Positions 2,843 through 55,567 of a stretch of 64,000 nucleotides of DNA are shown piece by piece. The position numbers and the translations under genes were made by a program. A model generated the notes under the pieces. That model searched no databases and was not told the DNA's origin. It worked only from the letters and a program-made list of their open reading frames with translations. Origin of the DNA: a virus; the IMG/VR virus record IMGVR_UViG_3300051212_000701, positions 21,951 through 85,950 of that record; one strand, 5' to 3'. The first letter of the stretch is position 1, and each line of letters opens with the position of its first letter.

Positions 2843-2851
2843 ATTATACCA
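2843..2851 (-). promoter_or_regulatory. extended -10 promoter (TGGTATAAT) for recA
   Basis: Consensus TGnTATAAT in a 34-bp intergenic gap. Confidence 0.65.
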
Positions 2852-2852
2852 T

Positions 2853-3200
2853 TTAGAACAGGTTGCCGTGAAGTCTTGGCCTGTCTTTATTTATATTTAT
2901 TTTTTTATCAAGTATTTCGTCTAAGCTGTGCTCTACAGCATTGTTGTTTCTCATAGCGGCATACAGATCAAGCGTTCTAATAAGAATGTCAGCAATTTCT
3001 TCTACAATGTGTTCTGAACCTTTGCTTTTTCTTATTGCTTCTAGTACCTCTGTTACTTCAGAATGAATTAAGGCAAGCTTGTTTCCAACCTTATCATTAG
3101 AATAATCTCCGTCCCAAAATCCTTTTTCAATTGCAGTTTCATGCAATATTGCAGACAGGGCGTCTAGTCCATACTCTGTTAATATATCATTCTGATTCAT
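2853..3200 (-). CDS. MazG-like nucleotide pyrophosphohydrolase
   Basis: LIHSEVTEVLEA...EEIADILIRTLDL motif; start placed at MNQND (3200) to minimise overlap. Confidence 0.85.
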   Translation of the reverse strand: MNQNDILTEYGLDALSAILHETAIEKGFWDGDYSNDKVGNKLALIHSEVTEVLEAIRKSKGSEHIVEEIADILIRTLDLYAAMRNNNAVEHSLDEILDKKININKDRPRLHGNLF

Positions 3201-3477
3201 TAGGTAGCTTTTCATCCATAGCATCATCAAAGTTTGCATTATACTCAAGCTCTTCAGGCTTAGGAAGTCTAAAAATAAAATTTGGTCCAGTCTCGTCGTA
3301 GTCTACGACAAGCTCTTTATCTTTATTGTTTGCCTCAAATAATGTTCTAGTAGGCACACTTACCTGACCAATAGTTTCCAGTATTGAGATCAGAACTTTG
3401 CTTGCCGTAAGCTGTGCCTGAACTTCATTAACATCAAACTCTGGTTCTTGTTGTATAGTAATTTGTTGTTCACTCAT
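3187..3477 (-). CDS. hypothetical acidic protein
   Basis: 96-aa ORF, ATGA-coupled to dnaE. Confidence 0.7.
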   Translation of the reverse strand: MSEQQITIQQEPEFDVNEVQAQLTASKVLISILETIGQVSVPTRTLFEANNKDKELVVDYDETGPNFIFRLPKPEELEYNANFDDAMDEKLPNESE

Positions 3478-6743: not shown

Positions 6744-6764
6744 TAACTCTCCGCCTCTACTCTA

Positions 6765-7436
6765 TTACCAGTCTACGCTGCTGCTAGATGCAGTAGTTTC
6801 GTCTGACTGTCCGCCTTCACCCATGTAAAAGGCTTCTTGTTCTGCATAAGGTACATGTCGTACTGCAGTTTTTTCTAGGTCATACAATTCTAGAGATGAG
6901 AAATCAAATGGTGACTCATCTTTTGCTAGAGGGATAATTGTATAACTTGTGTCTGTCTTAGAACCATTACGCTTGATTCTCCACATCAAGTTTGTAATGC
7001 TTCCCATTTCGCCAGCGTATTCAATTAAGGTAGGTGTAATTGTTTTGCCGCTAGTTCCTTGTGATAGGATTGCAACATACGGATCATTCTTTCCGTCATC
7101 AACTAGTACGTTGATATATAGGCGAGTTCTTGCCTTCCAACCAGCCTTTGGATCCTTGCGATGTTGTTCGTGAGCCCAATCTCGTCCTTCAGTCTCCATT
7201 GTATCAAGAGCCTTGCGACGGTAATCTTTTGGGTTTGTGTGCTCTAGTGCGATAAAACCGCATCCAAGCTTATCATTATAGTTTGGTGAATCTGGATCAA
7301 GCTCCTGTAGGAACCTAATTTTTACGCTTTCGCCGTCTTCAATCTTAAGCCAGCGACCTTTGTTTTCTTCTCCGCCTGAATACACAGGCTTATCAAGTGC
7401 TTTGTTGAGGTCCTTTAGACCCTTTACTATGCTCAT
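6765..7436 (-). CDS. single-stranded DNA-binding protein (gp32-like)
   Basis: WLKIEDGESVKIRFL, IKRNGSKTDTSY and an acidic tail ending in W; lies between primase and polymerase. Confidence 0.75.
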   Translation of the reverse strand: MSIVKGLKDLNKALDKPVYSGGEENKGRWLKIEDGESVKIRFLQELDPDSPNYNDKLGCGFIALEHTNPKDYRRKALDTMETEGRDWAHEQHRKDPKAGWKARTRLYINVLVDDGKNDPYVAILSQGTSGKTITPTLIEYAGEMGSITNLMWRIKRNGSKTDTSYTIIPLAKDESPFDFSSLELYDLEKTAVRHVPYAEQEAFYMGEGGQSDETTASSSSVDW

Positions 7437-20327: not shown

Positions 20328-20785
20328 TATACTTCTTCCAGACCTATGCTGACATCCCAAAATTCTTGAGCAGCATCTGATGACTTAGACTTAACATTTC
20401 TTTTTACAAGTGTATGACTACACTCAGAAAATACAACATTAATAACTTCATCTCTTGCAGTAACTGCATTATAAGAAATTTTTAACTTAAAAGAACCTTT
20501 CCCCTTGTTATGATAAAAAGTTTTTAAATCTACTGCTCCATATCCACCATCTATTGTCATTGAGCTGTATGAAGGTAGCATGCGCCAATTTGTAGAAATT
20601 GTTTTTTTGTCAGCAGTAAATAGTTTACGCATAGTTCCATTTGCCATTCTTTGCTGTTTTTCAATTCTATTATTTCCTATACTTACTGGCTCTCTGTTGT
20701 GCTCAGTTAATTTAGTCCATGTCGGATTGTCGTCAGTTGATGTATCTATATATAATACAGAACCTACTGGTAATGTTATTGCCAT
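20327..20785 (-). CDS. distal tail (Dit-like) protein
   Basis: RMANGTMR motif, C-terminal WDVSIGLEEV; immediately follows the tape measure gene. Confidence 0.7.
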   Translation of the reverse strand: MAITLPVGSVLYIDTSTDDNPTWTKLTEHNREPVSIGNNRIEKQQRMANGTMRKLFTADKKTISTNWRMLPSYSSMTIDGGYGAVDLKTFYHNKGKGSFKLKISYNAVTARDEVINVVFSECSHTLVKRNVKSKSSDAAQEFWDVSIGLEEV

Positions 20786-23700
20786 TATGACCTCCTTGGA
20801 CCCATTTCTGAAATAGATCTTCTATTTCCTTTTTCTAGAACTTCTATCGTGGCTGTTGTAACTTTTCTTACTAGAGCATCCATATTCTCTCCTTCAGACT
20901 GCATAATTGTTTGGTTTAAAACAATTGGCTGTTGAGGTGTTGATTGCGCTGCCAGACCTGCAAAACTCTTTTGTCCAGACTGAACATTGTATGTTGGAGT
21001 TGCATATGGAATATTATTTAAGTCTGGAATAACCATATTACCATACAGTAATTCTGGACCCTTATCTCCAACTATAGTAGGAACTGTTGGATCTATTGAT
21101 GTAATTCCATATCCAGCTTTTACTACAGAGAATCCAGCATATCCAGCTTCTCCTGTAACCCGCCATCTTTGTCCATTTTTATCTGTAAATGTAGAACCTA
21201 CCCACGTTCCAGTTCTATCCCCAGCTCCTCTAAATTGTTTTTTAGCTCCTGACTTTTCTAATTCTGATGCTGTTACATATGTTCCTCCAGCATACTGACC
21301 AGACTTCTTTGGGTCATCAGAAAACTTAACTGGAGTTGCTGGTGTAGGACCTGCTGAGGCTTTCATGTAATCGATATAATCTTTTCCGCCAATAATAAGC
21401 CTATCTGCAGTTATTGACTTAGATGCTAGATCTCCTGCTTGGTTTGGCTTGCTAGAACCACCATTTGGCAAACCATACCATTGACCATTAGCACCCTTCT
21501 TTGGCCCCAAATTAACTCCTGCGGCTTCTGTAGGAGCAACTAATCCCGCAAGCAAATATTTTCCAGTCTCGGTTTTTCTAAAGTCTGCTTCTGTCATTCC
21601 TGGATTTTCATCTAAATATTTTACAAGATTTAAATTATAAGCAGTTTGAGCAGCATTTAAACCATCAATAGTTTTATTTAGTGCAGCTATCTTTTTATCA
21701 AGTGTTGCTAGGCTCTCTCCAGCTGTAGCTGCTGCATCTGCAAGCTTTTGATTTGCTGCATTAATCTTTTCAATTTCAGCAATAAGAGGAGCATTTGCTT
21801 TATCTCTTGCTGCTTCAATTGCTCTTGTTTGTCCTACTGTTTGAAGATTTTGTACAGCAGACTCATATCTAAGTCTTGCTTGCGCTGCCTGTTCTGTATT
21901 GCCAGTAGACTCTGCAAACTGTAATTCAAGTCTTGCTGACTCCATTTCACGATTAAGATCAGCATCTTCTTTTGCTGCATTAAGAGCCTTTATACGTGCA
22001 TCAGCTAATTTATTTGTAGCATCAATCTGCTTTTGAAGAGCTTTAATTCTATCTCTTGCAGATATTTGATCTTTAACGTTTTGTCCCTTTGCTTGAATTG
22101 CAAGTTTTTCTCTTTGAGCCTGTAGCTTTCCTAGCGCAGAGTATTCATCAGCCAAAGCCCCGCCTGCTGACTTATTAGCATCAATAACCTTTTGCTGTAT
22201 AAGCATTCCCATGTTATACAAGGCTTGAGTTTGAGCAGCGTTAAGTTGAGAAAGATCTCCTTGTAGTCCTAAAGCTTGTAGTCTTAACTTTTGCCATACG
22301 CTTACTACTGTATCTGATGTATTGGCAAGCTCTTTAATTGCTGGATTAGCTTTTGCCATTTCTTTAATGGTTGCTGCAGTTAAAGTAGTTTGTTTGTACT
22401 GGCTCTGATTCAAATAATCCATCATTTGAATTTCAGCTTGGTACATACTAATTTTTTCAGTTTTTCCTGTTTTATCTTTCTTTGCAGCATCTTCGCTCTT
22501 TTTAATAATTTCTTCGATTCCAGCGTCTACTGCGGTTAATGCAGTATTTAATGCCGCTGCTTGTGACTGAGCATTGCCAAGTCTTGCTGCAGTGTTATAT
22601 GACTTAAGTGCACCCATAGCGGCGCCTTTGGCATCTTGCATAGCATTAAAATCTTTGTTTTGAACAGTAGCTGCAGCTGCCATATCTGCATTTTTAGATA
22701 GAGCAAACATTGCATAAATTTTCTTTGTAGCTTCATCTGCAGACATTCCCGCAGCAATAAACTGTTGTTTAAATCTAACTGCCAAGTCGCCAAGCTCTGC
22801 TTTTTTAGTAGAATTAATTAATTTAATTTGTTCATCAAAAGCACCCTTAACTTCTTCTTTAAGCTTACGATATTCAGTAATAGTCATCTTGATAGGTATG
22901 CCTGCTTGAGTCATACTTTCGTATGCAAGCTTATTTGCTTCCATTAGGTCTTTTGATCTTTGAATGCTGTCTTTAATCTTTTGATTATAATCTACAAACT
23001 TAATTCCTGCTTTTTGAGCAGCTTCTGCTGTAAGTCCGTACCCTAAAGCATTAAGTTTTTGTTGTTCTTGATATTTTTTAAATACAGTAAATCCTGCAGT
23101 TAATGCAGTTGTTATTCCAGTAATTGCTAATCCTAATGGAGTAGCTGACGCAAGAACTCTTCCAAGAACTGGACCAAGCTTTGACATAACAGCTCCTGCT
23201 TGAGAACCTGCTTTACCCATATTAATTAAATTAGCTGAAGTTTGAGCTAATGGTTTAAGTGTTGATGTTGCAGATTGAGGAAGCTTGCTTGTAACACCTC
23301 TTGTCATTCCGCTCATTGCACCCATAGGAAGTAAGAATGGAAGGATGTTTGATACATTGCTTATTGCAGCTCCAGGAGTTCCTCCTACCTTGTCGCCCAA
23401 CATATTGCCAAGCAAAGGTATTCCCATCGCTGCTAATAGTCCTGCTACTAAACCTCCTCCACGATAACCCTTAACTGGACCACCATTTGCATACCCCATT
23501 GGGCCGTTGCCTGAACCTACGTATCCACCTGAAGCATATCCTCTTCTCCACTTTCTATCAAGCATTTTACTTTCATAAGTGGTTGGAACACGTCTTGTAT
23601 TTAATCTTCCGCCTAATAATCTAGGATCTGAAAGTATTCCCTTTCTAAACATTTTACTTCCACCAGTTGTTACTGATTGCTTTTTACCAGATTCGTCTGT

Positions 23701-26700
23701 TATAACTACTGTTGTTTTTCCACCTTTTCCTGAAGCAGATGTTGGGCTAGTATAAAAGAATGGATCAGAACCTGAAGCAGCTTTAGCTTCAGCAGCTGTC
23801 ATAACTGGAAGATCTTGTCCACCTGTGTATGCTTTAAAACTTGCTGGCCTAAATCCTTTAGGCATGTTTGCTATTGTCATTGCTGTCTTAAAAGATTCTC
23901 TTTCTGACATAGGAAGAGTTCTAAGAGTATCTTTTCTTGCAAACTGATAAATTTGTGCTAGTGCGTCATCATGATAGACTCTGCCTTCAGACAATCCTTT
24001 TGCTGCTTCAAGAAGTCTTCTTTTAAATACTTTTTTCTGTGCTTCATTTAATCCTGGAAGATACCTAAATAACCTATCGTTTCTTGCAGCAAGAGCTCTA
24101 ATTAATTCAGATCTAGTTAGTCCTCTTTTACCCATTCGTAATGCTTGGTTTTCTTCTGGATAAAGCCCAAGTATATTTCTGTCAAAAACTTCTACTGGAT
24201 GATTTGGAAGTGCTCTTGCAAATGATTCTGTTCCTTTAGGAAGATGTTGTCCATAAACATCTGGTAGTTCATGTGCATACATCGCCATTGGAAGGCTTGC
24301 ATGTGCTCCAACTGGGCCCCTCGTCATATCAATCTTTAGATCATTTAGTTTATCTAAGAGAGGAACACCTAGCTTATCTACAGCTTCTTTACGTAGTACA
24401 TATTCACCCTCAGTAAGCCAAGCTGGTACTGTGTCTGTTCCGCTTGGACCACCGCCAGCCATATAGACTGGGCCACCAGTTGCCATACGACGTGGGCGTG
24501 TTGTTTCAATGCTGTATGGAGCACCAAATGTTTTTACCTTAAGATTTTGTGCAATTCTATTTAGTAGACCTCTAGTTCTTCCAGGTCTAGCTAGTTCTTT
24601 CATATTACTTTTGCCAGTAACTGGATCAACTACTGGCTGATTAAGCAATGGAACATTTGTAAGATTAATACTTCTTCCTTGAGCTCCTGCAATATCTGTT
24701 GCTGCGCCAGCCATCATGGCTTCTATCTCTGCATTTAAAGCAATTATTTTTGATCTTGCTTGGTCTACACTTATTTTTCCAGCCTGTAGGTCAGCAACTA
24801 TTGCAGCTGAGGCTTGTGCAGCGTTTGCAGTTAGCTCTGTCATCTTTGGCAACAAAGCTTGATAAGAGTCGGAAAGTTCTGATGTAATTAATCCTGTTCG
24901 CCCTACTTCTGTTTTTAATGCCTTTATTTCTGCATCAGACTGCATGGCAAGGGCTGCTGTCATGGCATGCCATCTAGCTGCTTCTTCTGCAACAATTCCA
25001 GTTGAAACTCCCTTGATTGATGTAAGACCTTCTATCTTTGGCAAATCTCCAGACATATACATCTGTGGATTTCCACCAATTTTTTGATTAACTTTAGGAG
25101 CTCCAGGAACTGTTCCAAATATTGTCTGTGTCATTCTTTCATCTGTTGTCATTCCAGAAACAGGGTTTAGATGTGACATTGATCTTGTGTCTGTTGGGCT
25201 AATTAAAGGATGTGAAGGGTTTACTTGTCTGCCAGCAACAATTGTTCCACCCATTGTTGTAAACATAGGTGTGCTTGATATTTGACCAGTTTTAGCCTTT
25301 GCTTCTAATATTGATAGTTCAGCTATCAGTCCTTCTATTGCAGTTTTTAATACTGTTGCTGCCTTTGCGTCACTATAAAATGTAGACTCAATTAAAGATC
25401 CAGCTTTTTGTGCCGCCATCATTTGTGGCGTTAACATCTTCCAGCCTTCTCCGCCCTTGAAAAAAGCTTTAAATGCAGCTGCGCCTTTAACTATATAACC
25501 AAAAAAGTTAGCAAGAACACCAGTTAGCATAATTATAGGACCTATAACTGCTGTAAGACCTGTAACAAATGTTAAAATTGTTTTAACTGGTCCAGGTAGT
25601 TTATTTACGAATTGCACTATGCTATCTACAACATTAACAAAGAATGTTTGTACCTTAAGGAATTCTTCTCCTATACCTGCAAGGTTAGCTTTTAAAGACT
25701 CGACTGCTCTCTTGTATCGTCCAGATGCTGACTCTGTAACAAGCCTTAATTCTCGCTCTGCTACTGATGCTAGGTCCTGAGAGCTTGCTTTCATTAGATC
25801 TAAAACTTGTAAAGTTTGGCTTCCTTCTTTTCCTAGATTTTCAAACAATGCCTGCATTCTTGCAAACTGAAACTTTCCGAAAAGTTGTTCAATTGCCTGT
25901 GATTTTTGTAAAGGATCGAGATTATCTAAAGCGGCTTGCAAATCCATAATCATTGCTGTTAGGTCGCCAGCGTTGTCTGTTACTATACCTTTTAGATCAA
26001 TTCCCATTTCTGCAAATTTTTCTGTTGCAACTTTTGTTGGGTTAATCAAAGAAGCAAGTGCCGACTTAAGTGCATTTGCGCCTTCTGTTGCGTTAACTCC
26101 GCCTTCACGCATAGCTGTTAGATATAATGCTAAATCTTTAACACTTCCGCCTAAACCTTGTATTACTGGACCAGCTTTAGGGATCGCTTCAATTAAATCT
26201 GCTAGGCTTGTTGAGGTTTGGTTTTCAACTGAGTTTAAAAAGTTAATAGATTCTGTTAGCTGATCTGTGTTTTGTTTAAAAGCTGTTTGAATTGCTAAAG
26301 TTGCTTTCATAGCATCTTGTCTGTCAACTTCACCAAGTACAGCAAGACGGCTTGTTTCTTTTACAGAGCCTATAAGCTCTGCACCTTGTTGTCCTGTTGC
26401 TGCAATATCAGCAGCTAACTGTATTGTTTCTTTAAATGATGTTCCATATGCAGCCGATAACTCTTTTGCCGTAGAAGAAACATCTCTTCTAATCTTTGCA
26501 AGGTCTGCAGCAGATGTTGCTGCAACTCCACCATAAACCTTTGTTAATCTTGTAAGTTCTGCATCTGCTTCTCTAAAAGCTTTTGCTGCGGCAGCACCCA
26601 TTGCTGCTAATGGGACAGTCAATCCTACAGTTAACTGACGACCTGCCCACTGAGTATTTTTACCCCAGTTAATTAGTTGAACTCCGCCATCTTGAATAAC

Positions 26701-27189
26701 CTTATTCATAATAGCAAGCTCTTGTCTTGCTAAAGCTGTTTTATTTTTTACCGCATCTAAGCCTTGTGGAATATGAACATTGTATTGCATAAGCCCTTGA
26801 GCATTTTTGCCCAAGGGTTGCACAACTGCGTTTTGTAAAGCTACCTGCTGTTTTGCAAGCTCTCTAATTAGTCCGCCTGAAGTTTTTGTATGCTCTTGAA
26901 AAGTTCTAAAGTAATCTCTTAGCTTTAATTTTCCAGAGTCTAGGTTTTTGCCAAACTTTTCTACATCTGAAGTTAAGGTTACAAAGTGTGTTGAAAACTG
27001 CCCAGTTCTTCTTAAATTTTCTGCAAATGATCGATTCATTACAGCAATCTGATTTGCTAATTTTGCATCAGATTGAATTAACTGAGCCTGTAATTTAGAT
27101 AGAGAAGCTGTTACCCTATTGACATCTGCAATAAGATTTGAAAAATCAGCATTGGCAACTATATTAGTTACAATGTTTTCATCAGCCAT
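20785..27189 (-). CDS. tape measure protein
   Basis: 2134 aa, Ala/Leu/Gln-rich helical; TP901-type core (GLTVPLAAMG, GANALKS, EQLFGK); VGDKGPEL near the C-terminus; follows the tail chaperones. Confidence 0.93.
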   Translation of the reverse strand: MADENIVTNIVANADFSNLIADVNRVTASLSKLQAQLIQSDAKLANQIAVMNRSFAENLRRTGQFSTHFVTLTSDVEKFGKNLDSGKLKLRDYFRTFQEHTKTSGGLIRELAKQQVALQNAVVQPLGKNAQGLMQYNVHIPQGLDAVKNKTALARQELAIMNKVIQDGGVQLINWGKNTQWAGRQLTVGLTVPLAAMGAAAAKAFREADAELTRLTKVYGGVAATSAADLAKIRRDVSSTAKELSAAYGTSFKETIQLAADIAATGQQGAELIGSVKETSRLAVLGEVDRQDAMKATLAIQTAFKQNTDQLTESINFLNSVENQTSTSLADLIEAIPKAGPVIQGLGGSVKDLALYLTAMREGGVNATEGANALKSALASLINPTKVATEKFAEMGIDLKGIVTDNAGDLTAMIMDLQAALDNLDPLQKSQAIEQLFGKFQFARMQALFENLGKEGSQTLQVLDLMKASSQDLASVAERELRLVTESASGRYKRAVESLKANLAGIGEEFLKVQTFFVNVVDSIVQFVNKLPGPVKTILTFVTGLTAVIGPIIMLTGVLANFFGYIVKGAAAFKAFFKGGEGWKMLTPQMMAAQKAGSLIESTFYSDAKAATVLKTAIEGLIAELSILEAKAKTGQISSTPMFTTMGGTIVAGRQVNPSHPLISPTDTRSMSHLNPVSGMTTDERMTQTIFGTVPGAPKVNQKIGGNPQMYMSGDLPKIEGLTSIKGVSTGIVAEEAARWHAMTAALAMQSDAEIKALKTEVGRTGLITSELSDSYQALLPKMTELTANAAQASAAIVADLQAGKISVDQARSKIIALNAEIEAMMAGAATDIAGAQGRSINLTNVPLLNQPVVDPVTGKSNMKELARPGRTRGLLNRIAQNLKVKTFGAPYSIETTRPRRMATGGPVYMAGGGPSGTDTVPAWLTEGEYVLRKEAVDKLGVPLLDKLNDLKIDMTRGPVGAHASLPMAMYAHELPDVYGQHLPKGTESFARALPNHPVEVFDRNILGLYPEENQALRMGKRGLTRSELIRALAARNDRLFRYLPGLNEAQKKVFKRRLLEAAKGLSEGRVYHDDALAQIYQFARKDTLRTLPMSERESFKTAMTIANMPKGFRPASFKAYTGGQDLPVMTAAEAKAASGSDPFFYTSPTSASGKGGKTTVVITDESGKKQSVTTGGSKMFRKGILSDPRLLGGRLNTRRVPTTYESKMLDRKWRRGYASGGYVGSGNGPMGYANGGPVKGYRGGGLVAGLLAAMGIPLLGNMLGDKVGGTPGAAISNVSNILPFLLPMGAMSGMTRGVTSKLPQSATSTLKPLAQTSANLINMGKAGSQAGAVMSKLGPVLGRVLASATPLGLAITGITTALTAGFTVFKKYQEQQKLNALGYGLTAEAAQKAGIKFVDYNQKIKDSIQRSKDLMEANKLAYESMTQAGIPIKMTITEYRKLKEEVKGAFDEQIKLINSTKKAELGDLAVRFKQQFIAAGMSADEATKKIYAMFALSKNADMAAAATVQNKDFNAMQDAKGAAMGALKSYNTAARLGNAQSQAAALNTALTAVDAGIEEIIKKSEDAAKKDKTGKTEKISMYQAEIQMMDYLNQSQYKQTTLTAATIKEMAKANPAIKELANTSDTVVSVWQKLRLQALGLQGDLSQLNAAQTQALYNMGMLIQQKVIDANKSAGGALADEYSALGKLQAQREKLAIQAKGQNVKDQISARDRIKALQKQIDATNKLADARIKALNAAKEDADLNREMESARLELQFAESTGNTEQAAQARLRYESAVQNLQTVGQTRAIEAARDKANAPLIAEIEKINAANQKLADAAATAGESLATLDKKIAALNKTIDGLNAAQTAYNLNLVKYLDENPGMTEADFRKTETGKYLLAGLVAPTEAAGVNLGPKKGANGQWYGLPNGGSSKPNQAGDLASKSITADRLIIGGKDYIDYMKASAGPTPATPVKFSDDPKKSGQYAGGTYVTASELEKSGAKKQFRGAGDRTGTWVGSTFTDKNGQRWRVTGEAGYAGFSVVKAGYGITSIDPTVPTIVGDKGPELLYGNMVIPDLNNIPYATPTYNVQSGQKSFAGLAAQSTPQQPIVLNQTIMQSEGENMDALVRKVTTATIEVLEKGNRRSISEMGPRRS

Positions 27190-39882: not shown

Positions 39883-40779
39883 TTACACCGCTGACTTTAA
39901 ATATCTAATTATTACAATTCCAGAAGCTCCTGAACCTGCAAAAAAAGCTGATTGTTGATTATATGCATTTGATCCTCCGCCTCCACCACCGCCGCCGCCT
40001 GTGTTTGCTACTGCATCTCCAAACCAACCGTTAGGACCTGAAAAAGAATTACTTGTTCCATCATTTAATGCCCATCCGCCTGCTCCGCCTACTGAAGATC
40101 CACCAGGTGCTGAGTAGGTTGTGCTTACACTTCCACCACCGCCGCCGCCTGCATAATATCCATTATAACCTGTAGAGGTTGCTGTAGCCCATGAAATATA
40201 TGCTTGAGTACCTGGTCCGCCTGCGCCACCATTATTTGATCCTCCACCTGAACCACTACCTGCAGCTCCTCCGCCGCCACCATTTGCACTTGTTGTTCCA
40301 CCACCGCCTGAGCCTCCATTATACCCTTGTGCTGGAACTACTGATGGAACATTTCCTGCGCCTGCGCCCGCAGACACTCCCCAGCTTACTCCACCACCGC
40401 CTGAGCCTCCATTTTTATTTCCATTCCAGTTTCCAGTTCCTCCACCTGCTGCAGAAAATGAATTGAATGATGAAGCTGTATCTTGTCCGCCAACCACTAC
40501 TGGATAAGAATTTGGAGTCAATGTAAATGAAGTACTACGAACTCCTCCTGCGCCGCCACCGCCACCGCCGCCTCCGCCTGAGCCGCCGCCGCCAATTACT
40601 AAAACCTCTACATTTAAATTTGAATTGGATAGAAGAAAAGTATCGCTTGATTTAAATGTTCTGTAATAATATGTAGAGTCAGATGTTAATACGCCACCAG
40701 AAATTTCTGCTTGTTTTTTCCCCCAAGCACCAAAAGCTCTTGATGAAAAGCTTGACCATGCTGTTACTATTGGACTCAT
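39883..40779 (-). CDS. glycine-rich adhesin-like protein
   Basis: [13 protein letters not shown]...NTGGGGGG...[10 protein letters not shown]; start MSPIV at 40779 (ATGA overlap). Confidence 0.8.
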
Positions 40780-42404
40780 GCAAATTTTACCATTGATGCA
40801 AAAACATAAAAAGAAGCATCTGCTGTTTTTGTAATGGTAAATGAGTATGCATCTACTGAAGATGCATTTCCAGCCGAAGGAGCTGTTCCATTTTGCCATT
40901 TAACTGTTGTACTTGCACCATCAATTGTTAATGATGTCATATATCTTGGCGTAGCATCATTTGTGTTTAAAAATAATATTGTTGCAGATTGTCCTGCTGA
41001 TAAAATTGAATTTAATGTTGTTGTTGAATCACCTCTAACATTTAATATAAAGTTTGAAGTTGATGGAAGAATATAATACATAAAGCTAGAAGTTTTAAAG
41101 TTTATATTTATTGTCCCGCTTGCTCCAGCACTAACGATTGTTGTGGTTTCTGTTGCTGCAGTTAAATTACTATTAGTAGCCAGTACTCCAGTTGCGCCTG
41201 TAGGACCTGTTGGTCCTGTTGGTCCTGGAACTATTGAGTCTGCCCCAGTTGCTCCTGTGGCACCTGTAGCGCCTGTAGGACCTGTTGGTCCCTCTGTGCC
41301 TGTAGGACCTGTAGCACCTGTTGGTCCAACTATTTGTCCTGAAGAAGACCATGAAGATCCGTCCCAAATATAAAGGTCTCCGTCTGCATCTACTATTCTT
41401 GCATCATTAACTGAGTTTCCTGTAAGTGGTAGTGTTGCAATAGTTGGTGCGCTAGCTTTTAGATTTATAGAAAGTCCTTGTGGGCCAGTTGGACCTACTG
41501 GTCCTGTTGGTCCTGTTGGTCCTGCTAAAGAGCCACCAATTTCTACCCAAACAGAATTGTAGTAAATATACTCTCTTCCTGTTGCAGAATTAAACCAACC
41601 TTGTCCTTCATAAGGATTAGATGGAGGATTTTCTGATGTTATAGAAAATGCTCCTGCTGAACCAGTTGAGCCTGTTGCACCTGTTGGACCTGTAGGACCT
41701 GTTGGTCCTGTTGGTCCAGCAACTGTTGAATCTGCGCCTGTGGCGCCAGTAGGTCCTGTTGGTCCTGGAACTATTGAGTCTGCTCCTGTTGGACCTTCTG
41801 GACCAGCAACCCCTGTGGCACCTGTTGGACCAGTTGCTCCAGTTGCTCCTTGTGGACCTTGAATTGTTCCTACATTTTCCCATTGAGAATTAGCCTGAGA
41901 CCAAACGAATAGGGATCCATTAATTAAATATCCGTCACCAACATTTCCTGTAGGGTGTGCAGATTGTAAACTTGATAAAGATGGATAAGAACCTAATATT
42001 GTTACTGCAGTTCCTGTAGCACCTGTTGAGCCTGTTGCTCCTTGTGGACCTTGTGCACCCGTTGCACCTGTTGGTCCAGCAACTGTTGAATCTGCGCCTG
42101 TGGCGCCAGTAGGTCCTGTTGGTCCTGTAGCTCCAGTTGCACCTTGTGGGCCAGGAACTGTTGAATCTGCGCCTGTGGCGCCAGTAGGTCCTGTTGGTCC
42201 TGTAGCTCCAGTTGCACCTTGTGGGCCAGGAACTGTTGATGCTGCACCTGTAGCTCCAGTTGGACCTGTTGGACCTGTTGGACCTGGATGAGCTGTTAAA
42301 TAATCATCAATGTCTTGAGCCAAATAGCCTAAGTCTCTTGGAATGTCAGGTGACATATCCAAGGTTGGATATCTAAAATTCTTAGGCGTTAAATTGCTAG
42401 GCAT
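40776..42404 (-). CDS. collagen-like fibre protein with C-terminal adaptor domain
   Basis: Four G-X-Y tracts separated by ~45-aa knots; C-terminal KWQNGTAP...DAYSFT. Confidence 0.85.
42081..42239. repeat. perfect 75-bp tandem duplication inside collagen gene
   Basis: ttgaatctgcgcctgtggcgccagtagg... starts at 42086 and again at 42161. Confidence 0.85.
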
Positions 42405-42406
42405 TT

Positions 42407-43480
42407 TTAAATTATACCACTTTCACGGTTCTGAGCACTATGATAGAACCCTAAATTATCATGCAATCTTTGGTCATCGCTATTTAACGATACAGCTATT
42501 TCCCCATGCTTTGAGGCATCATCAAAAAACCCTAGATTATAATTTGCTAAGGCTAGTAGGTCGTGTGGCTTCCATCCCCAAGCATCTGACTCACAAAAGT
42601 AGTCAAGGTACTTTTCTTTTATGTTAAGAGCTAGCTCTGAATATTCTTTTACTTTGTTCCAATCTCTTATATCGTAAAAATATTGTGCAAGATCAACATA
42701 AGGCTCTCTTCTTTGTGGGCATTCAGCAATTGCTTGTCTTAACCAGAACTCTTGGTTTATTGGCTCACATTTTGCAATATATCTCATAGACTCACATCTT
42801 TCTGGTTTCCATTGTGACAATGGCAAAGATAAATGTCTTTTGAATTCTTCTGCTGCTTCTTTATACCTAGCATGGAAAAACAATTCTCTTGCGTAATAAT
42901 GTGCACATCTATCACTTGCTGGATCTTCTTTTGCTGCCATTTCTAAAAGTGGAAGATACTGTCCTCTTGATTTATTATTATCTGGAAGATGATATATTTT
43001 TACATTTATTTTTTGTCTTACTTCATCTATTCCATAATAACTAACCGATTCATGAATAGGAAATTTCCATCTATGTCCATTACGAGCATGCATTCTTAAT
43101 GCATCAAACTCTACACCTGGTTGACCTGCTTCTGTTATATGAGTAACAAGTGTATGTATTGGTCTTGTTACATTAGAACCTTCTAATAGTTCTAATTCTG
43201 ATCTCCAGCCTTCAGATAAAACTTCATCCATATCTAAAGATATGCAGTAATCTATATCTGCTGGAATTAAAGATAAAGCCGCATTTCTAGCATCATCAAA
43301 TCGCCAAGGGGATATAGATATTTGGAATACATTAATTCCTAATGACTTTGCTATTTCTGCGGTTTTATCTGTAGAACCAGTATCTGCAATTAAAAGATAG
43401 TCTGCATCTTTTGCTGAATTGTACCATCTTTCAACAAACTGCTCTTCATTCAGAGCAATTGTGTATACTGCTATTTTCAT
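42407..43480 (-). CDS. glycosyltransferase family 2 with C-terminal TPR repeats
   Basis: [27 protein letters not shown] (DxD), IHE, followed by TPR-like helices ([17 protein letters not shown]). Confidence 0.92.
42411..42419 (-). promoter_or_regulatory. extended -10 (TGGTATAAT), leaderless start
   Basis: 6 nt upstream of ATG 42404; no Shine-Dalgarno. Confidence 0.62.
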
Positions 43481-43508
43481 TTATTTCCCTTATTGTAGGA
43501 TATAATCA

Positions 43509-45893
43509 TTAACCGATTACAGTTATGATTCCGTTCATGCTTGCGTGGAATTGACAAATATAATACAAAGTATTTGGGGCATCTAGTGGTACTGTAAATG
43601 TAATTCCTCCTACATCATCTCCCCCGTTTGTTACACCAGTTGAGTATGTGTTTGCAGAATTATAAGCGCCACTAGTTGTCTGTAGCCAGAATGGGTGTCC
43701 AGCTGCATTTACTGTAAACACATAAGTGTGACCTCTTAATAATGTTAATCCTGGGTTTCCTGAAGTTCCATTTATACTATAACTTCCTCCCGCAGGGCTT
43801 GTTACAATATAGTTGGCTGTAATACTAGGGCCTGTAGGTCCTGTAGGGCCTGTTGGGCCACCTGCTGGTCCAGCTTCTCCTGTAGGACCTGTAGCACCTG
43901 TAATACCTACGCCTGTAGCGCCTGTAGCGCCTGTTGGTCCAGTAGCGCCTGTAGCGCCTGTTGGGCCTGTTGGGCCCTGAATACTTGATCCATTTGCGCC
44001 TGTTGGGCCTGTTGGGCCTGTTGGGCCTGTTGCGCCTACACCAGTAGCGCCAGTAGCGCCAGTAGCGCCTGTTGGGCCCTGAATACTTCCTACGTTAGTC
44101 CATTCTGAGCCTGTCCATACGTACAGCTCTCCATTAACTAAATACGCATCTCCAGTAGATCCTGTTGGATGTGCAGATTGAAGTGCTGCTAGTGTTGGAT
44201 AAGATCCCAAAATTGAAACGCCAGTTCCATCTGCACCTGCAACTCCTGTTGCTCCAGTAGGACCTGTGGCACCTGTTGGGCCTGTTGGGCCAACCGCTGT
44301 TGATGCTGCACCTGTAGCTCCAGTAGGTCCTGTTGATCCTGTAGGTCCTTGTTTTAAAGTAAAGTTTAAAATCAAATCAGTTGATGTTCCAGAATTTAAA
44401 ATTCCAGGAGCACCGTTTGGTCCAGTGTCTGTGACAGTTCCGATTGTTATTGTTGTGGGCCCTGCTGGTCCTGTTGCTCCTGTTGGACCTTGCTTAAGAA
44501 CAAAATCAAGAATTGCTGCATCTAATGCTCCACTATTTGTAACTGTTGCATTTCCTGTTGGGCCTGTAGACGTAACAGTTCCTACGTTTACCGTTGCAAC
44601 TGTTCCTGTAGGACCAGTTGGTCCTGTTGGTCCTTGTTTAAGAACAAAGTCAAGAATTGCATCTTGTGCTGTTCCTACATTAGTTACAGATGGATTTCCT
44701 GTGGGACCAGTTGATGTTGTTGTTCCTACAGCAATAGTTGCTGGGCCAGTTGCTCCTGTTGGGCCCTGAAACTGTCCTGCATCAATCCATGTTGATCCAT
44801 CCCAAACATAAAGATGAAGATCTGTTAATACAATCCAAGAGTCTCCACTTGTATTTCCTGAAGAAGGAAGAGCGGCGACGTTTGCTTGTGTTCCCTTAAT
44901 ATTAATTGATCTTCCAGCTGCTCCTGTTGGGCCAGTTCCTCCTGTGGGTCCTGTTGGACCTGTGTTACCTGTAGCCCCTGTAGGTCCAGCAAATCTTCCG
45001 CCATTTACCCACGCTGTTCCACTCCAAATATAAACTTCGCTTGTATCTTGAACTAAGTATGTTGCTCCCAACGCTCCAGATGCTGGTAAAGCTGCAAGAT
45101 TTGCAACCGTACCCTGTAGAGTAAGAGATTGTCCCGTCGCACCTGTTGGGCCTGTTGCGCCTGTTACTCCAGATGTTCCATTTACTCCTGGTGCGCCTGT
45201 AGGACCAGTTGCTCCAGTTGCTCCTGTAGTTCCTGGATTTCCAACTACTGCAAAAACCCATTCAGACAAGGTTCCTGATCCGTTTTTGGCATCTACGCTT
45301 ACAGATATACTTACATTTTTAACAACTTGAGTAATTATACCTTCTACATAAGTTGTAACATTAAGCGGATTAATTACACGAACTCTTTGTCCTGCTGTGT
45401 ATGCACCACTGTTGTTTACATAAAATACTTTCAATCCATTACTTACTTGAACCGATGTTGTTGATGTAACATCTGAATACCCAGCACCTGTTGCTCCAGT
45501 AGTCCCGCCGCCGCCAGTTCCTCCACTGAGTGTTCCAGACATGTCTACTCCAGATATTGTAAGTGAGAAGCAGTTAGGAGTTGTTGTTACTGCTGCAATA
45601 GATTCTCCTGCAGCTAAAATTAATGAATGCTCTAATCTTAAAGTTGTATTGTTTTGAACATTTACGCTTCCATACAGAGTATATGGGTCTAAGCTAGACC
45701 TGTTTACATTATAAAGATTGATTACTTGATCGCCATTTTCTCCGAGAAGGAATAGGCTGAATGGCAAAGTTGATGAACTAAAATTAGTTACAGTAAATTC
45801 TTTTATAATAATTGGAGATACTGCTGTATATATTTTTGCTGGGAATGAAGGTATTAGTGAGGGTCCAGCAAATCTAATTGGAGCATATGACAT
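43509..45893 (-). CDS. collagen-like fibre with C-terminal cupredoxin (type-1 copper)-like domain
   Basis: G-X-Y tracts with repeated knots; C-terminal GHPF...[12 protein letters not shown]. Confidence 0.82.
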
Positions 45894-50789: not shown

Positions 50790-51704
50790 CTATTCTATTG
50801 TCAAATAAGTCAATATTCCAACCAGGACTACTGGTACAACTAAGGCCAGTATAGCCCTATAGTGCTTCTTTATTGGAGTGTCAAAATAGGACTTGGTAAT
50901 AACCAAACATTTGTGGGTCGGAGACAGCATATAGCCTGCATAGTCTATTGCAAAAAATAGAGGCAAATATTCTACTCCATAAACTGTTGCCGATAAAGCT
51001 GTAAAGCCTGCAAACTTTCCACTACTTCCCAAGGCAAAGCTTGCAATAAATCCAGCTACGGCTACGGCAACCAGCAAGTCCTTTTCATGTGCTGAATTTA
51101 CCCAGGCATTAATTTGATCAAAGTTTGCTTTTACAATATTGCTCAATATTATAACAATGCCTACAAAAAGAAGGGTAGTGGCATATGACTTAATTTGTTT
51201 TCTATCTTCTTTCCAGGTGGTCTTTTCAATTGGTCTATCTATATTAATATCTACTTCATCTTCTTTTACAATTTTAAATATATAGTAAAAAATAACAATT
51301 GCTGCCGTCGCTAAGAGAGGCCAAATTCTTCCCATAAACTCTGCATAAGAAATGCTTAATGCTGCCATAGGGACAAGTACTGTTGCTTCTAGTGGAGACC
51401 AAAAGTAGTAGTGATGAGTGGATAGATAGTCTATGATTCCAAATATTTTTTTCTTTGAACTATTTGGAGCAATTGTGTCTAAGGCACCTGCTGATATTGA
51501 TGCTCTTCCATTTACTGGTAATACTCCTGACACCAAGGATATAAGAGCTACAACGGCTCTTTTAGATCTTACTCTTAAAGCAATAAATTTATATACTGGT
51601 AAAAATACTTGAGTTTTTTTAGCCCAGAAAGACAGGGACATAACTATTGATAGCAACAAAAGATACTGCTGATTGTCTGTAATTAAATTAGTTGTTATTT
51701 CCAT
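50790..51704 (-). CDS. DUF401-like multi-pass membrane protein (ion transporter superfamily-like)
   Basis: About 8 hydrophobic segments; GVLPVNGRASISA, HHYYFWSPL, GYMLSPTHKCL...YF. Confidence 0.72.
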   Translation of the reverse strand: MEITTNLITDNQQYLLLLSIVMSLSFWAKKTQVFLPVYKFIALRVRSKRAVVALISLVSGVLPVNGRASISAGALDTIAPNSSKKKIFGIIDYLSTHHYYFWSPLEATVLVPMAALSISYAEFMGRIWPLLATAAIVIFYYIFKIVKEDEVDINIDRPIEKTTWKEDRKQIKSYATTLLFVGIVIILSNIVKANFDQINAWVNSAHEKDLLVAVAVAGFIASFALGSSGKFAGFTALSATVYGVEYLPLFFAIDYAGYMLSPTHKCLVITKSYFDTPIKKHYRAILALVVPVVLVGILTYLTIE

Positions 51705-53349
51705 TTTTTTTCTCTACTACTACTAAGTATAATCCGTTCCACCAATTAGACTCGGACTCTATAGAATTAAGCACTTTCTTACTATATAATATTTTTAATC
51801 CTGAATCAACTATTCCTTTATGAGCACCTTTAACTACATCTGTCCAATTTGCGTCATCAAAAATTAATATGCATGTCTTTGCAAAAGATTTAGAATAATA
51901 CTTGACTGCATTTTTAGTTGATTCAAAATCATGAGGTCCGTCATAAAAAAATAAATCTATTTCAGATATCTCAGACAAATTTACCTTAAACATATCTGAA
52001 TTACAAATATAAACTTTGTTTTCTCCTATATAAGGCTTTATATTATTCTTAAACTCTGCAAGACTATTTGTATTTGGAGTATCCCAATCAGACCTGACTG
52101 CTTTTGGGGCATCTTGCCACATATCCACAAAATAAGCAGACAAGTTATTGTTCATTAGAGCTGATGCTGCTGTAGCTCCTTGATAAGAACCGACCTCTAA
52201 ATACTTAGAAGATGTTTTGGCAAGACTATTGATTAAGGACTGAACTCTGGTTGAAGTTAGTCCTGGTATGTTTATTTCTAAAGTACTATTTACTGAATCT
52301 ACAAGTTCTTTTGCTACTGCTGCAACTTTTTCATTTATATGCTTTCCATATTTAGCTGCTACTATTTTATCGCAATATCCACAATCCCAGCAGTCAAATT
52401 TGCAGTTTTTAATTTTATTTCTCCATATTGCTATGGGCTTTTCAACTAGATTTGTTTCTTCAATAAAATCATTAAAAGTATCAAAAAGAATATCTTCTTT
52501 ATTAGCATACCTTGTAATTATATCCATTGTCTCTTTTAACCTTGTATGCGATTCTCTGCCGTGCATTTTAATTACATCAATACCTAGGTCATCTATAAAC
52601 TCTTGCCAGTCCTGCCGCCAAGGCGGGAAGTTAGCTGTCTTTAAAGATACAGCAAAGTCTTCATGGTCCCATTTTGGGCAAGAAACTCTGCTTATCGGAT
52701 CATTAAAATACTGAGGTCCTGTAGTTCTAGTATTATTGAACTGATAGTGCTCATCCATCATTATACAGCCTCCGTAGCACCCTTCATTAGCCAATAAGGA
52801 CAACTTGACGCCAAATTGCTGCTTAGCTTTTTTGAAGCGCTTTAGCTTCTCGTGGTCTCTCATAAGGTCTCTATCTAAGTTGATATAGTCAAAGCCAGCC
52901 TTGGCCAACTTTTCAATATCTCTAGGCTCAGACACATTTCTTAATATTGTATTCTTTACAAAAAGATCTGGAAAAGCTTTTTTAATTTGCCCTGTTGCCA
53001 TCCAATGGGTATGTGGTATTGTAGCGGACCTTATGCCCGCATTGTAGACAGGCTCAAAGCTTGTAATAAATAAATCTAAATTCTCTTGAGAAGGCCTGAC
53101 CTCTATATTATTAAAAACAGCAGAAGCTGGTATTCCAGTTTCTGCCTGAACATATAGAGCCATATTGATTAAATAATCGTAATCTTCTTCTTTGTTTACA
53201 AACACGTCTCCCATGGCGTCTTGTGTAAAAGGAGGAATTCTGCAAGTAAAATAAAAATCATATATATACTGTTTTTGTTTTTTTAAAAAACTTACAAAAT
53301 CAGCAAACTGATTTTCATTTAGTTTAGGATTTAAAGGAACGCTAAACAT
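51688..53349 (-). CDS. peptidase U32-family Fe-S protein fused to class I SAM O-methyltransferase (Methyltransf_24-like)
   Basis: GFDYINLDRDLMRD, LLANEGCYGGC..H..SC, IKMHGRE, CKFDCWDCGYC; then YLEVGSYQGAT, FFYDGPHD, IFDDANW. Confidence 0.82.
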   Translation of the reverse strand: MFSVPLNPKLNENQFADFVSFLKKQKQYIYDFYFTCRIPPFTQDAMGDVFVNKEEDYDYLINMALYVQAETGIPASAVFNNIEVRPSQENLDLFITSFEPVYNAGIRSATIPHTHWMATGQIKKAFPDLFVKNTILRNVSEPRDIEKLAKAGFDYINLDRDLMRDHEKLKRFKKAKQQFGVKLSLLANEGCYGGCIMMDEHYQFNNTRTTGPQYFNDPISRVSCPKWDHEDFAVSLKTANFPPWRQDWQEFIDDLGIDVIKMHGRESHTRLKETMDIITRYANKEDILFDTFNDFIEETNLVEKPIAIWRNKIKNCKFDCWDCGYCDKIVAAKYGKHINEKVAAVAKELVDSVNSTLEINIPGLTSTRVQSLINSLAKTSSKYLEVGSYQGATAASALMNNNLSAYFVDMWQDAPKAVRSDWDTPNTNSLAEFKNNIKPYIGENKVYICNSDMFKVNLSEISEIDLFFYDGPHDFESTKNAVKYYSKSFAKTCILIFDDANWTDVVKGAHKGIVDSGLKILYSKKVLNSIESESNWWNGLYLVVVEKKNGNNN

Positions 53350-53354
53350 TACTC

Positions 53355-53906
53355 CTACAGATCTACTTTATAAGTGGTGTCGTCTGGATTAAGCATTATG
53401 CCAAATCTTTTGCTTAATAGTATACCACTTTCTACCCAGTCCTTGCAAGAATCTATCTCTTTTATTATTTCGCCTTTTCTTTTTAATAAATCATATTCAC
53501 TTTCGTATTTGGCAAAACGTAAGCATACTGGAGTTGATTTTGACATCTTTATTTTATTATAATAATATTTGTCCAGCATAAAATGCATTAACGCTTTATT
53601 AATAAGATAAGCGTTATATTTATCTTCTTCTGTTAAAACGTATTTATATTTATCTTTATATGGCTCTAATCTTGATTTGTCTATTTGATCATACGATGGA
53701 GTATTCTCTCTAACAGATATTTCTCCTTTATATTTATTTGCAAACTTCCAGGCTAAAGCTACCTGCTCTGGAACAACAATACAAGTTGGCATTACTATAT
53801 ATGGCAAAAGACTTTCTTCTACGCATCCGACCAAAATTCCAGAACAATCACCTATTTCTTTAAAATATGGCTTATTGTCTTCTGGGTTGTATAAGAAATA
53901 AATCAT
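53355..53906 (-). CDS. hypothetical protein
   Basis: 183-aa ORF, ATGA-coupled to the upstream coiled-coil gene. Confidence 0.7.
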   Translation of the reverse strand: MIYFLYNPEDNKPYFKEIGDCSGILVGCVEESLLPYIVMPTCIVVPEQVALAWKFANKYKGEISVRENTPSYDQIDKSRLEPYKDKYKYVLTEEDKYNAYLINKALMHFMLDKYYYNKIKMSKSTPVCLRFAKYESEYDLLKRKGEIIKEIDSCKDWVESGILLSKRFGIMLNPDDTTYKVDL

Positions 53907-54634
53907 TCTACTTCTTCCCAGAGCCCCTGTGATGACTCAGGTAGTTCTAGTCTTTTCTTTACCTCAACCTGCAATTTTTCTAGATGGGTGTTGGTCTCTA
54001 TTGCTTTTTGTACTGCATGATCTAAAGCTATCTCCCTTATTTGGGGAGGCAGTTGATCAATGGCCTCCATGTTACCGCTATTTACTCTTCCATAAAACAT
54101 TAAATCATAAGCTGCTTGAGCACCTAGCCTTATTCCCCAAAGCTCTGCCTCTAAACGCTCTTCTTCTTCATGGTTTCCAATTATGTCCATAATTCTTCTA
54201 CCATCAGGAAGCAAACCCTCTTCAGATTCATTAAATCTATCTATAAGCATCATATGCTTATCTCTTTCTTCATAAAGAAGGCTTATAGTGATTTTATGAT
54301 TATTTAAAACTCTTTCTTTTTCTTTAATAGTTAATTCATGTAATTTAATTTTTGCAGGAGATGTTTCTTGAGAAATAAGTTCTTTTTCTAGCTCTATTTC
54401 TAATCTAACTCTTTCTATTTTTAATTCTTGATCTGTTATAAGATTTTCTCTAGATCCTAACTCTAGAAGCAGCTGTCTAAGTTTTCCAAACGGGGTAAAT
54501 TGTGCTCCTGCAACAAAGTTGTCTATTTTAAATACGGGAACTCCCCAGTGTCTATTTGCAGCATACAGCAATATGTCTTGCTGTGATTTTGTGTAGCCTG
54601 AAACGTCCGACGTTAAATCGTTGATATATCTCAT
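53903..54634 (-). CDS. coiled-coil protein
   Basis: FVAGAQFTPFGKLRQLLLEL, long E/K/L heptads, YGRVNSGNMEAI. Confidence 0.72.
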   Translation of the reverse strand: MRYINDLTSDVSGYTKSQQDILLYAANRHWGVPVFKIDNFVAGAQFTPFGKLRQLLLELGSRENLITDQELKIERVRLEIELEKELISQETSPAKIKLHELTIKEKERVLNNHKITISLLYEERDKHMMLIDRFNESEEGLLPDGRRIMDIIGNHEEEERLEAELWGIRLGAQAAYDLMFYGRVNSGNMEAIDQLPPQIREIALDHAVQKAIETNTHLEKLQVEVKKRLELPESSQGLWEEVE

Positions 54635-54649: not shown

Positions 54650-55567
54650 CTAAGATCTATATGCAGAGTACGCAGAACTTCTTCCTGGAACTCCCTTTGA
54701 TTGCATTGAGCCGCCGCCTTCATATCCTGAATCGGTAGCATAATTAAAGCGCCAAGCACGGTTGTTTTGCTCTCCATTATACATTCCTACCATGTATTGA
54801 TGTGCTTGTCCCATATCAAAATTTTCTTCTCCAGAGTTTCCAATTGGTTTGCTTACGCTACCAACATTCGACTCTGTAGCAACACTAAATCTTCTTAAAT
54901 TGTATCCTCCAGAATAGCTTCCTTCATTTCCCGCATACAAGTAGTTTAATTTAGATGAAATGCCCTTTTGTTGTCCGTGAGCTCCATTACAAGGAGAACA
55001 CGCTTGAGCCTCTGTTGCAAATGTTAATTTAACTCCATTATCGTCACCATAATGAAAACCTTTTGTTTCGTGATATATTGCAGACATTGTTTGACCACTA
55101 TTTCCGCAAGCTTTACCAATGCTGCTGAGCCAGGTTTGTGTTGAAAATTGAAATCTCATAATTGCATTGTTTCCGTCTGCTGGAGCCCCATAAGCTCTAG
55201 TTTGTTCTTGATGCATAATCGTTCCAGCATTTCCAACGTTGTAAGGTGCGGAAGGACCTATCTGAGAGGTTTCTGTTCTCATGCTATATCTATTTGTTTG
55301 GCTTGAATTACCGCCTACTGTATTATTAGCTTTAAGAACATAGGCAAAAGTGTCATCACACATTCCGCCTGGGTATGCAGTAGAGTTATTTAACTGACCA
55401 CCTAGATCTACAGTTGTATCTGTTGAGTGAGCTGTTCTATTTACATTAGTCCACGGAGAGCTATTTCTATAACCAGCAAGGATATAACCCGTAGTGATTA
55501 CTTGTCTCAACAAGAATGACTTTGGCCCGCCTGAGCCACCCATATATCTATTTTGTGGAAATGGCAT
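54650..55567 (-). CDS. Kelch-like beta-propeller protein
   Basis: ~45-aa repeats: GYILAGY...HSTDT, YLYAG...FSVATES, YMVGMY...FNYATDS. Confidence 0.72.
   Translation of the reverse strand: MPFPQNRYMGGSGGPKSFLLRQVITTGYILAGYRNSSPWTNVNRTAHSTDTTVDLGGQLNNSTAYPGGMCDDTFAYVLKANNTVGGNSSQTNRYSMRTETSQIGPSAPYNVGNAGTIMHQEQTRAYGAPADGNNAIMRFQFSTQTWLSSIGKACGNSGQTMSAIYHETKGFHYGDDNGVKLTFATEAQACSPCNGAHGQQKGISSKLNYLYAGNEGSYSGGYNLRRFSVATESNVGSVSKPIGNSGEENFDMGQAHQYMVGMYNGEQNNRAWRFNYATDSGYEGGGSMQSKGVPGRSSAYSAYRS

Follow-up and report, generated by a model that had tools for sequence, protein, structure and literature searches.

What reaction does a viral protein catalyse, and on what target, when it joins a barrel resembling the U32 family to a methyltransferase and is encoded among fibre genes? 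The question is raised by a gene at 51688-53349 (minus strand) of the window analysed here, a stretch of 64,000 nucleotides covering positions 21,951 to 85,950 of the virus record IMGVR_UViG_3300051212_000701. The first-pass annotation of the window described its product as a U32-family protein with an additional four-cysteine cluster, fused to an O-methyltransferase and possibly hydroxylating and then methylating its target. All motifs quoted for that reading are present in the translation and are conserved beyond chance, in 61 relatives or in 32 fused homologues. The N-terminal domain (N-domain) is a triosephosphate isomerase (TIM) barrel that has diverged deeply within the U32 superfamily and lies outside Pfam's U32 family, and the C-terminal domain (C-domain) is a class I S-adenosylmethionine (SAM) methyltransferase of the Methyltransf_24 family. 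We put at roughly 40% the probability that the fusion is a two-step tailoring enzyme, in which the barrel oxidises or hydroxylates a carbon and the C-domain O-methylates it to give a methoxy group. The gene and its parts are:

51688..53349, minus: fusion gene, U32-like barrel plus methyltransferase; ATG-started open reading frame (ORF) of 553 amino acids (aa)
52315..53349, minus: N-domain, residues 1-345, TIM barrel of a divergent U32-superfamily branch
52678..52785, minus: first cysteine group, E189-x-C191-x3-C195...E200-H201...C224, placed right after barrel strand 182-186 by conservation and secondary structure
52555..52569, minus: K261-M-H-G-R265 motif in the last barrel strand; K261, G264 and R265 at least 90% conserved
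52372..52404, minus: second cysteine group, C316-x3-C320-x2-C323-x2-C326, after the barrel; four cysteines invariant in 61 sequences
51709..52281, minus: C-domain, residues ~357-547, SAM methyltransferase resembling cation-dependent O-methyltransferases

Within the protein, NEGCYGGC occupies residues 188-195 and is followed by H201, C224 and KMHGR (261-265); CKFDCWDCGYC lies at 316-326, EVGSYQG at 385-391, DGPH at 470-473 and DD at 498-499. In PHROGs, the whole protein matches phrog_1458, a family of unknown function (E 6e-165), and residues 1-332 match phrog_36869, a 346-position profile. Methyltransf_24 is the sole Pfam family found on it, and NCBIfam gave no match for it or for eight relatives. 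Single-sequence searches of the PDB returned no useful match for either domain, and profile searches reached at best designed TIM barrels (alignment A1, E 0.037) and AcrIIA13 (alignment A2, E 0.16). The domain boundary near residue 345 is confirmed because stand-alone N-domain genes of 297-372 aa precede separate methyltransferase genes in other phages.

Assignment to the U32 family held for fold and remote descent, but not for Pfam membership. The N-domain models as a TIM barrel like that of U32 proteins, and its top structural match is the nearest solved U32 structure, 5D88 (the U32 domain of Mk0906), 3.4 Z units ahead of the next fold. In hhalign, the N-domain family aligned with a canonical U32 alignment at 83.6% probability (E 8e-6) over 143 columns, which span the first five beta/alpha units of the barrel. 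The canonical alignment comprises 10 sequences, eight genes from three cellular genomes plus Escherichia coli UbiU and UbiV; 12 U32 groups have been published. When the N-domain family was aligned by hhalign with the single UbiU or UbiV sequences, no kinship was recovered. Two proteins of ~400 aa from genome G004 (L117 and L118) are intermediates: they score 38.7 and 35.8 bits against Peptidase_U32, above the Pfam cut-off of 22.4, and are also matched by the N-domain family profile (E 1.3e-23 and 3.3e-13). Both retain the cysteine groups of the family, the first gap of the second group being CX4C in L117. The clusters nearest to the N-domain in a language-model atlas are named or partly annotated Peptidase_U32 (0.95-0.96), which serves as a lead only. 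On the other side, PF01136 (Peptidase_U32) has no match on the 553-aa protein at E<=0.1 and none across the whole 85,950-base virus record, versus matches in 8 of 14 control genomes. The kinship is thus one of remote homology, not of Pfam membership, and is stated with the proviso that local jackhmmer profiles could drift.

The arrangement of cysteines sets the family apart from the canonical proteins. In 61 relatives, which are 21-47% identical to the window N-domain, C191, C195, C224, C316, C320, C323 and C326 are invariant (61 of 61), as they are in the separate alignments A2, A4 and A5; C36 is the only other cysteine of the N-domain. The same 61 sequences conserve E189, E200, H201, K261, G264 and R265 at 90% or above. 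Near-invariant polar residues stand at the ends of the barrel strands (D31, N80, K132, T134, D159, R160, R164 and D258), a set that also takes in E189, E200, H201, K261 and R265. According to excerpts of PMC6747719, the [4Fe-4S] ligands of UbiU are C169, C176, C193 and C232, and the pattern CX6CX15CX3/4C is common to most U32 families; our canonical alignment likewise reads HGALC-x6-C-x15-C-x3-C. The window family instead reads C191-x3-C195-x28-C224, then C316-x3-C-x2-C-x2-C, with seven invariant cysteines per chain versus four per U32 subunit. The canonical pattern was looked for in the phage N-domain family and not matched, the HGALC-x6-C part being absent. NEGCxGGC therefore does not correspond to the published U32 core motif that it had been taken for, and CxxxCxxCxxC is not simply an extra cluster on a normal U32 core because the whole arrangement differs. 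A permissive hhalign extension of low confidence pairs C191-x3-C195 with the final CX3C in the U32 motif, and K-M-H-G-R with V-K-I-E-G-R of UbiU. Judged from conservation, the seven cysteines most likely hold one or more iron-sulfur (Fe-S) cofactors, and there may be two clusters; the group of three is most likely at the catalytic face of the barrel, and the group of four lies after it. A shallower full-length structure model renders the cysteine loops poorly.

The assignment of the C-domain to the class I SAM methyltransferases was borne out. Methyltransf_24 (PF13578) matches residues 384-499 with 38.1 bits against a cut-off of 26.3, and is found in 29 of 32 fused homologues. Residues E385, G387, G391, D409, D470, G471, D498, D499 and N501 are kept in 30-31 of the 32 and H473 in 28; D470, D498, D499 and N501 presumably equate with the metal ligands of cation-dependent O-methyltransferases. 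SAM-binding motif I (E385, G387 and G391) is present, and the model of the domain has a Rossmann-type alternation of strands and helices with a predicted local distance difference test score (pLDDT) above 90. In structural comparison the top 18 rows are all O-methyltransferases, followed within about 1 Z unit by enzymes that are not, so the structure is predicted to be O-methyltransferase-like and O-methylation would be its reaction. The nearest structures include TomG, COMT, SafC, MeT1, MycF and NovP, all cation-dependent class I O-methyltransferases, with TrmR among the nearest but no closer than catechol or sugar O-methyltransferases. The C-domain differs from TomG, COMT, SafC, MeT1, MycF and NovP in its low identity (10-18%), in matching Methyltransf_24 rather than Methyltransf_3 and in the lack of any PDB sequence match; Methyltransf_3 was found in only 2 of the 32 fused homologues, at E 0.033.

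Coupling of the two halves recurs across viruses. Two sets of viral loci were drawn from the best 80 of 562 and the best 80 of 478 relatives, the second seeded with divergent stand-alone proteins. Counts from the two sets are not additive because they have at least five contigs in common (L095/L185, L097/L186, L100/L197, L104/L196 and L107/L194). Fusion is found in 79 of 80 loci of the first set. In the second set, 14 loci have the fusion and 66 have an unfused N-domain gene (297-372 aa). A separate methyltransferase gene starts between 46 nucleotides (nt) before and 0 nt after the end of the N-domain gene in 63 of these 66; ORFs were counted from the first ATG, GTG or TTG after a stop, and overlaps of 37-46 nt may be overestimates. 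Fusion in some genomes and adjacency in others is classical evidence of a shared pathway, and the two halves are therefore taken to act in one. At 5974-7089 of the 224-kb contig IMGVR_UViG_3300026521_000471, a 372-aa N-domain gene has no cassette partner, methyltransferase or DUF401 gene within 6 kb; it is the sole second-set locus in which the N-domain gene is so isolated.

The gene belongs to a cassette in the fibre region, whose other members in the window are:

54650..55567, minus: 305-aa glycine-rich protein, putative propeller, first cassette gene; phrog_1417, E 6.5e-48
53903..54634, minus: 243-aa protein, putative coiled-coil, cassette member; phrog_1409, E 6e-29
53355..53906, minus: p183, 183 aa, 5 nt upstream of the fusion gene; no Pfam or PHROG match
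50790..51704, minus: DUF401-like membrane protein, 304 aa, downstream, overlapping the fusion gene by 17 nt; Pfam DUF401

Linkage of the enzyme to the 305-aa, 243-aa and p183 genes is close to complete. All 74 first-set loci with more than 2.5 kb of upstream sequence carry homologues of the three upstream on the same strand; among the 80 second-set loci, 79 have homologues of the 305-aa and 243-aa proteins and 78 have p183. The commonest order in the second set is putative propeller (one to three copies), putative coiled-coil, p183, N-domain and methyltransferase, with DUF401 following after 0.9-1.9 kb. Of the 80 first-set loci, 56 have a DUF401-like gene downstream in the same orientation; of the 68 whose downstream sequence reaches 3 kb or more, 50 do. 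The window's 304-aa protein scores 44.8 bits against DUF401 (PF04165; cut-off 24) and was matched by phmmer in 30 of 30 cellular DUF401 loci. Those loci sample 30 of the 90 genomes with DUF401 among 301 genomes of one phylum, and none of the 30 has a U32-like or N-domain-like neighbour within 1.5 kb. We found no description of DUF401 function in the literature, and p183 yielded no lead in the language-model atlas (best score 0.83).

Two cultured phages show variants of the cassette. The cyanophage P-HM2 has homologues of all three upstream genes (T4-like gene clusters 351-353), and no DUF401-like gene was found in the flank examined. The Ralstonia jumbo phage RP31 encodes the 305-aa homologue as ORF139, the 243-aa homologue as ORF137, a stand-alone N-domain as ORF136 and DUF401 as ORF135; no methyltransferase was found within 6 kb of its N-domain gene. 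Phages with split genes (L121-L200, for example L126 at 37-3424) have two or three tandem putative-propeller genes before the putative coiled-coil gene, and one or more unidentified genes (0.9-1.9 kb) between methyltransferase and DUF401. In the window, a virion structural protein is encoded upstream of the cassette, and collagen-like tail fibres (40776-45893), a glycosyltransferase, portal, protease and tape measure are encoded downstream. Promoter-like and terminator-like sites around the cassette are at shuffle level (25 versus 25.6 and 4 versus 4.1, respectively), and therefore do not define operon boundaries.

Cellular relatives share the cysteines and differ in their surroundings. A group of ~410-aa proteins (alignment A4) was found at 25 loci in cellular genomes and metagenome-assembled genomes (MAGs), including a complete Dehalogenimonas chromosome with three copies, Dehalococcoidales, Arcobacter, Deltaproteobacteria, Phycisphaerae and Brocadiia bins; some of the MAG contigs could be viral. 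The same searches find these proteins, and they have the same seven invariant cysteines and E-x-C-x3-C...EH, but they are longer, with an insert, and have no methyltransferase, DUF401 or cassette partner nearby. They occur in anaerobes beside varied genes such as rdhA, B12-radical SAM and PFOR. No conserved neighbourhood was found among them: neighbours include reductive dehalogenases, B12-radical SAM with PqqD, a xylose-isomerase-like barrel, FtsH, DAHP synthase and PFOR, with B12-radical SAM in only 3 of the 25 loci, all Dehalococcoidia.

Each of the three seven-cysteine copies on the Dehalogenimonas chromosome (CP139473.1; L008, L009 and L014) has reductive dehalogenase genes close by. Behind one copy come a B12-radical SAM/PqqD gene and then another radical SAM gene, as is typical of peptide-maturation clusters, and another copy adjoins a gene for DAHP synthase, the first enzyme of the shikimate pathway. 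An Arcobacteraceae MAG contig (L005) has tandem paralogues of the ~410-aa family at 95-1714 and 1726-3387 (ORFs of 539 and 553 aa). The G004 intermediates sit in lipid-type clusters. In one (L119, G004:C19:17000-31000; gene at 6241-7413, minus) the order is LuxE, LuxC, SDR, the U32-like gene, B12-radical SAM and an MMPL transporter; in the other (L120, G004:C52:1-12000; gene at 5221-6429, minus) it is cytochrome c, the U32-like gene, a fatty-acyl reductase with a weak SCP2 match, an aminotransferase and an MMPL-like gene. Both clusters belong to one genome and give no more than a hint of lipophilic substrates for some members.

Hydroxylation in which an organic molecule, prephenate, donates the oxygen is not known to be linked to any enzymes other than U32 proteins. 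UbiU/UbiV, TrhP (YegQ) and RlhA (YdcP) are needed for O2-independent, prephenate-dependent hydroxylation of aromatic carbons. O-methylation follows in two of these three characterised pathways, TrhP/TrmR and UbiU/V; in the ubiquinone pathway it is carried out by UbiG. In excerpts of PMC10990095, prephenate is the oxygen donor for hydroxylation by UbiU/UbiV, and these hydroxylations lead to ubiquinone. All U32-linked substrates in excerpts of that paper and of PMC6599085 are aromatic or heteroaromatic ring carbons. The Bacillus subtilis precedent cited in the first-pass annotation was accurate: trmR shares one operon with trhP1 and trhP2, and the COMT-like enzyme from this operon O-methylates the hydroxyl made in the tRNA pathway (excerpts of PMC6599085). 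Excerpts of PMC10990095 also describe most U32 subfamilies as uncharacterised and report no in-vitro reconstitution of hydroxylase activity for canonical U32 proteins.

Given the precedent of the tRNA pathway and the fusion, oxidation or hydroxylation followed by O-methylation is the simplest reading. The barrel, with its Fe-S cofactor or cofactors, would oxidise or hydroxylate a carbon of the substrate, and the C-domain would then use SAM to methylate the new hydroxyl. The enzyme would act inside a mobile fibre-region cassette of putative propeller(s), putative coiled-coil, p183, the enzyme itself and often DUF401. We infer metal binding, hydroxylation chemistry, the order of the steps, O-methylation and the substrate from these comparisons. 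Because the two activities are fused, the type of product is predicted, a methoxy group, and hence a mass signature. Because the enzyme belongs to a fibre-region cassette, host RNA is a less likely target than a residue in one of the cassette or fibre proteins, or than a small or lipophilic compound handled together with DUF401. The linked putative propeller, putative coiled-coil and p183 genes speak for a target among the cassette or fibre proteins, and DUF401 together with the lipid-type clusters for a small or lipophilic one. In a bolder version, which we regard as unlikely, the cassette methoxylates its own receptor-binding putative propeller or fibre protein, or the ligand of that protein, by O2-independent Fe-S hydroxylation and then O-methylation. 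If true, this would be the first U32-type enzyme to act on protein and the first in viruses, and a single chain with two clusters would do what requires a heterodimer in UbiU-UbiV.

Other readings explain parts of the same evidence. A rather doubtful one, yet the most serious, keeps the architecture and changes the chemistry: the barrel would be an Fe-S or other metal enzyme and no prephenate-type hydroxylase, perhaps a radical or redox enzyme working through the C-terminal CX3CX2C or a lyase or isomerase, and the methyltransferase would act on a group that the barrel exposes or otherwise creates. Its appeal lies in a cysteine arrangement unlike that of canonical U32 proteins, in the spacing C316-x3-C320-x2-C323, which equals the CX3CX2C of radical SAM enzymes, and in B12-radical-SAM genes beside or close to one intermediate and the relatives at 3 of the 25 cellular loci. 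U32 hydroxylase activity, moreover, is itself unproven in vitro in the excerpts of PMC10990095. Against this, fold and profile comparisons match U32 proteins best, not radical SAM enzymes, and the invariance of all four cysteines leaves no obvious open iron site. Membership of the radical SAM family (PF04055) was rejected, since the Pfam model has no match and the motif at 316-323 comes after the barrel and not near its start. Structural zinc, with the barrel reduced to a non-catalytic binding or scaffold module and the methyltransferase as the sole enzyme, seems improbable. Four cysteines within 11 residues can form a zinc knuckle, and a zinc-finger protein is a weak PDB profile match over that motif (E 0.37), but the near-invariant polar residues at the strand ends are a pattern typical of an active site, and the RP31 barrel stands alone, with no methyltransferase found within 6 kb.

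The B. subtilis operon trmR-trhP1-trhP2 (yrrM-yrrN-yrrO), which makes mo5U34 in tRNA, offers a further model, in which the fusion is a phage TrhP plus TrmR that converts U34 or another pyrimidine of host RNA to a 5-methoxy base and so tunes translation. Coupling in the phages takes the form of fusion or adjacent genes, and several observations make the RNA model improbable as well. The NCBIfam TrhP and TrmR models do not match the protein, no tRNA genes were found in the 64-kb window, and the gene is linked with the fibre-region cassette, not with genes of nucleic-acid metabolism, in three phage groups that differ greatly from one another. Orthology with TrhP/TrmR was rejected for want of a TrhP equivalog match in NCBIfam and of any specific closeness to TrmR. 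The first-pass annotation had also entertained a U32 "collagenase" (PrtC), which as a PrtC-like peptidase would process the collagen-like fibre proteins encoded nearby. The collagen-like genes are indeed in the window, and the U32 family has historically carried a peptidase label, but nothing was found in support of this idea and we consider it highly improbable. The cassette recurs regardless of collagen genes, as in P-HM2 and RP31, and a fused methyltransferase has no role in proteolysis, for which reasons the collagenase reading was rejected. Excerpts of PMC10990095 and PMC6747719 furthermore describe the characterised U32 proteins as Fe-S proteins linked to hydroxylation, not as proteolytic.

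A tblastn search found homologues in 126 phage records, comprising 123 cyanomyoviruses of Synechococcus or Prochlorococcus and three Ralstonia jumbo phages, with identity below 60% throughout and, among the matches listed, only hypothetical annotations; the N-domain is the better-conserved half (identity up to 57%). At E<=1e-5 there are at least 1966 homologues in a large protein database, and PF13578 was found in all 120 among the matches listed. An exhaustive search with residues 1-345 gave 292 representatives at 50% identity, among which are numerous stand-alone proteins (330-380 aa) and a distant group of longer ones (400-460 aa). Pfam assigned no family to any of 20 N-domain relatives, so that 0 of 20 match PF01136. 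Culturable carriers of the N-domain family include the cyanophages P-HM2, S-RIM2 and Syn19 and the Ralstonia phage RP31, and the reading of the fusion as a methoxylating enzyme is therefore directly testable.

The N-domain thus represents a large and diverse branch with its own seven-cysteine signature that is invisible to Pfam's U32 model. Unlike cellular U32 proteins, it is encoded by phages, in a fibre cassette, with its methyltransferase fused or in the next gene. Its members occur in phages that infect cyanobacteria, Ralstonia or uncultured hosts, and its genes are firmly joined to an O-methyltransferase-like partner. The strict association with genes of the fibre region suggests that a chemical modification connected with host recognition has gone unrecognised, and our literature searches turned up no account of a U32-like phage enzyme. 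New here are the intermediates that pass the Pfam threshold, the link by profile-profile comparison, the split genes, counts for the cassette linkage, the cellular relatives with their contexts and the negative neighbourhood test for DUF401.

A few observations stand apart from these arguments. The database proteins P0131, P0215 and P0268 (544-579 aa) have an extra 170-230 residues at the N-terminus, which the N-domain profile matches a second time, weakly and in part (i-E 2e-4 to 0.03); duplication of part of the domain, or ORFs merged in gene calling, could account for this. No domain of a cassette protein was found in these three or in two other odd longer relatives, P0149 and P0265; matches to a methyltransferase profile built from whole fused ORFs were disregarded for these five. 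In the window, the glycosyltransferase gene at 42407-43480 (minus strand; phrog_13126, beta-1,4-glycosyltransferase, E 1e-117) sits between the collagen-like tail-fibre genes 40776-42404 and 43509-45893. The tape measure protein at 20785-27189 (minus strand; phrog_10030) is very long, at 2134 aa, and tape-measure profiles match its first ~840 residues only.

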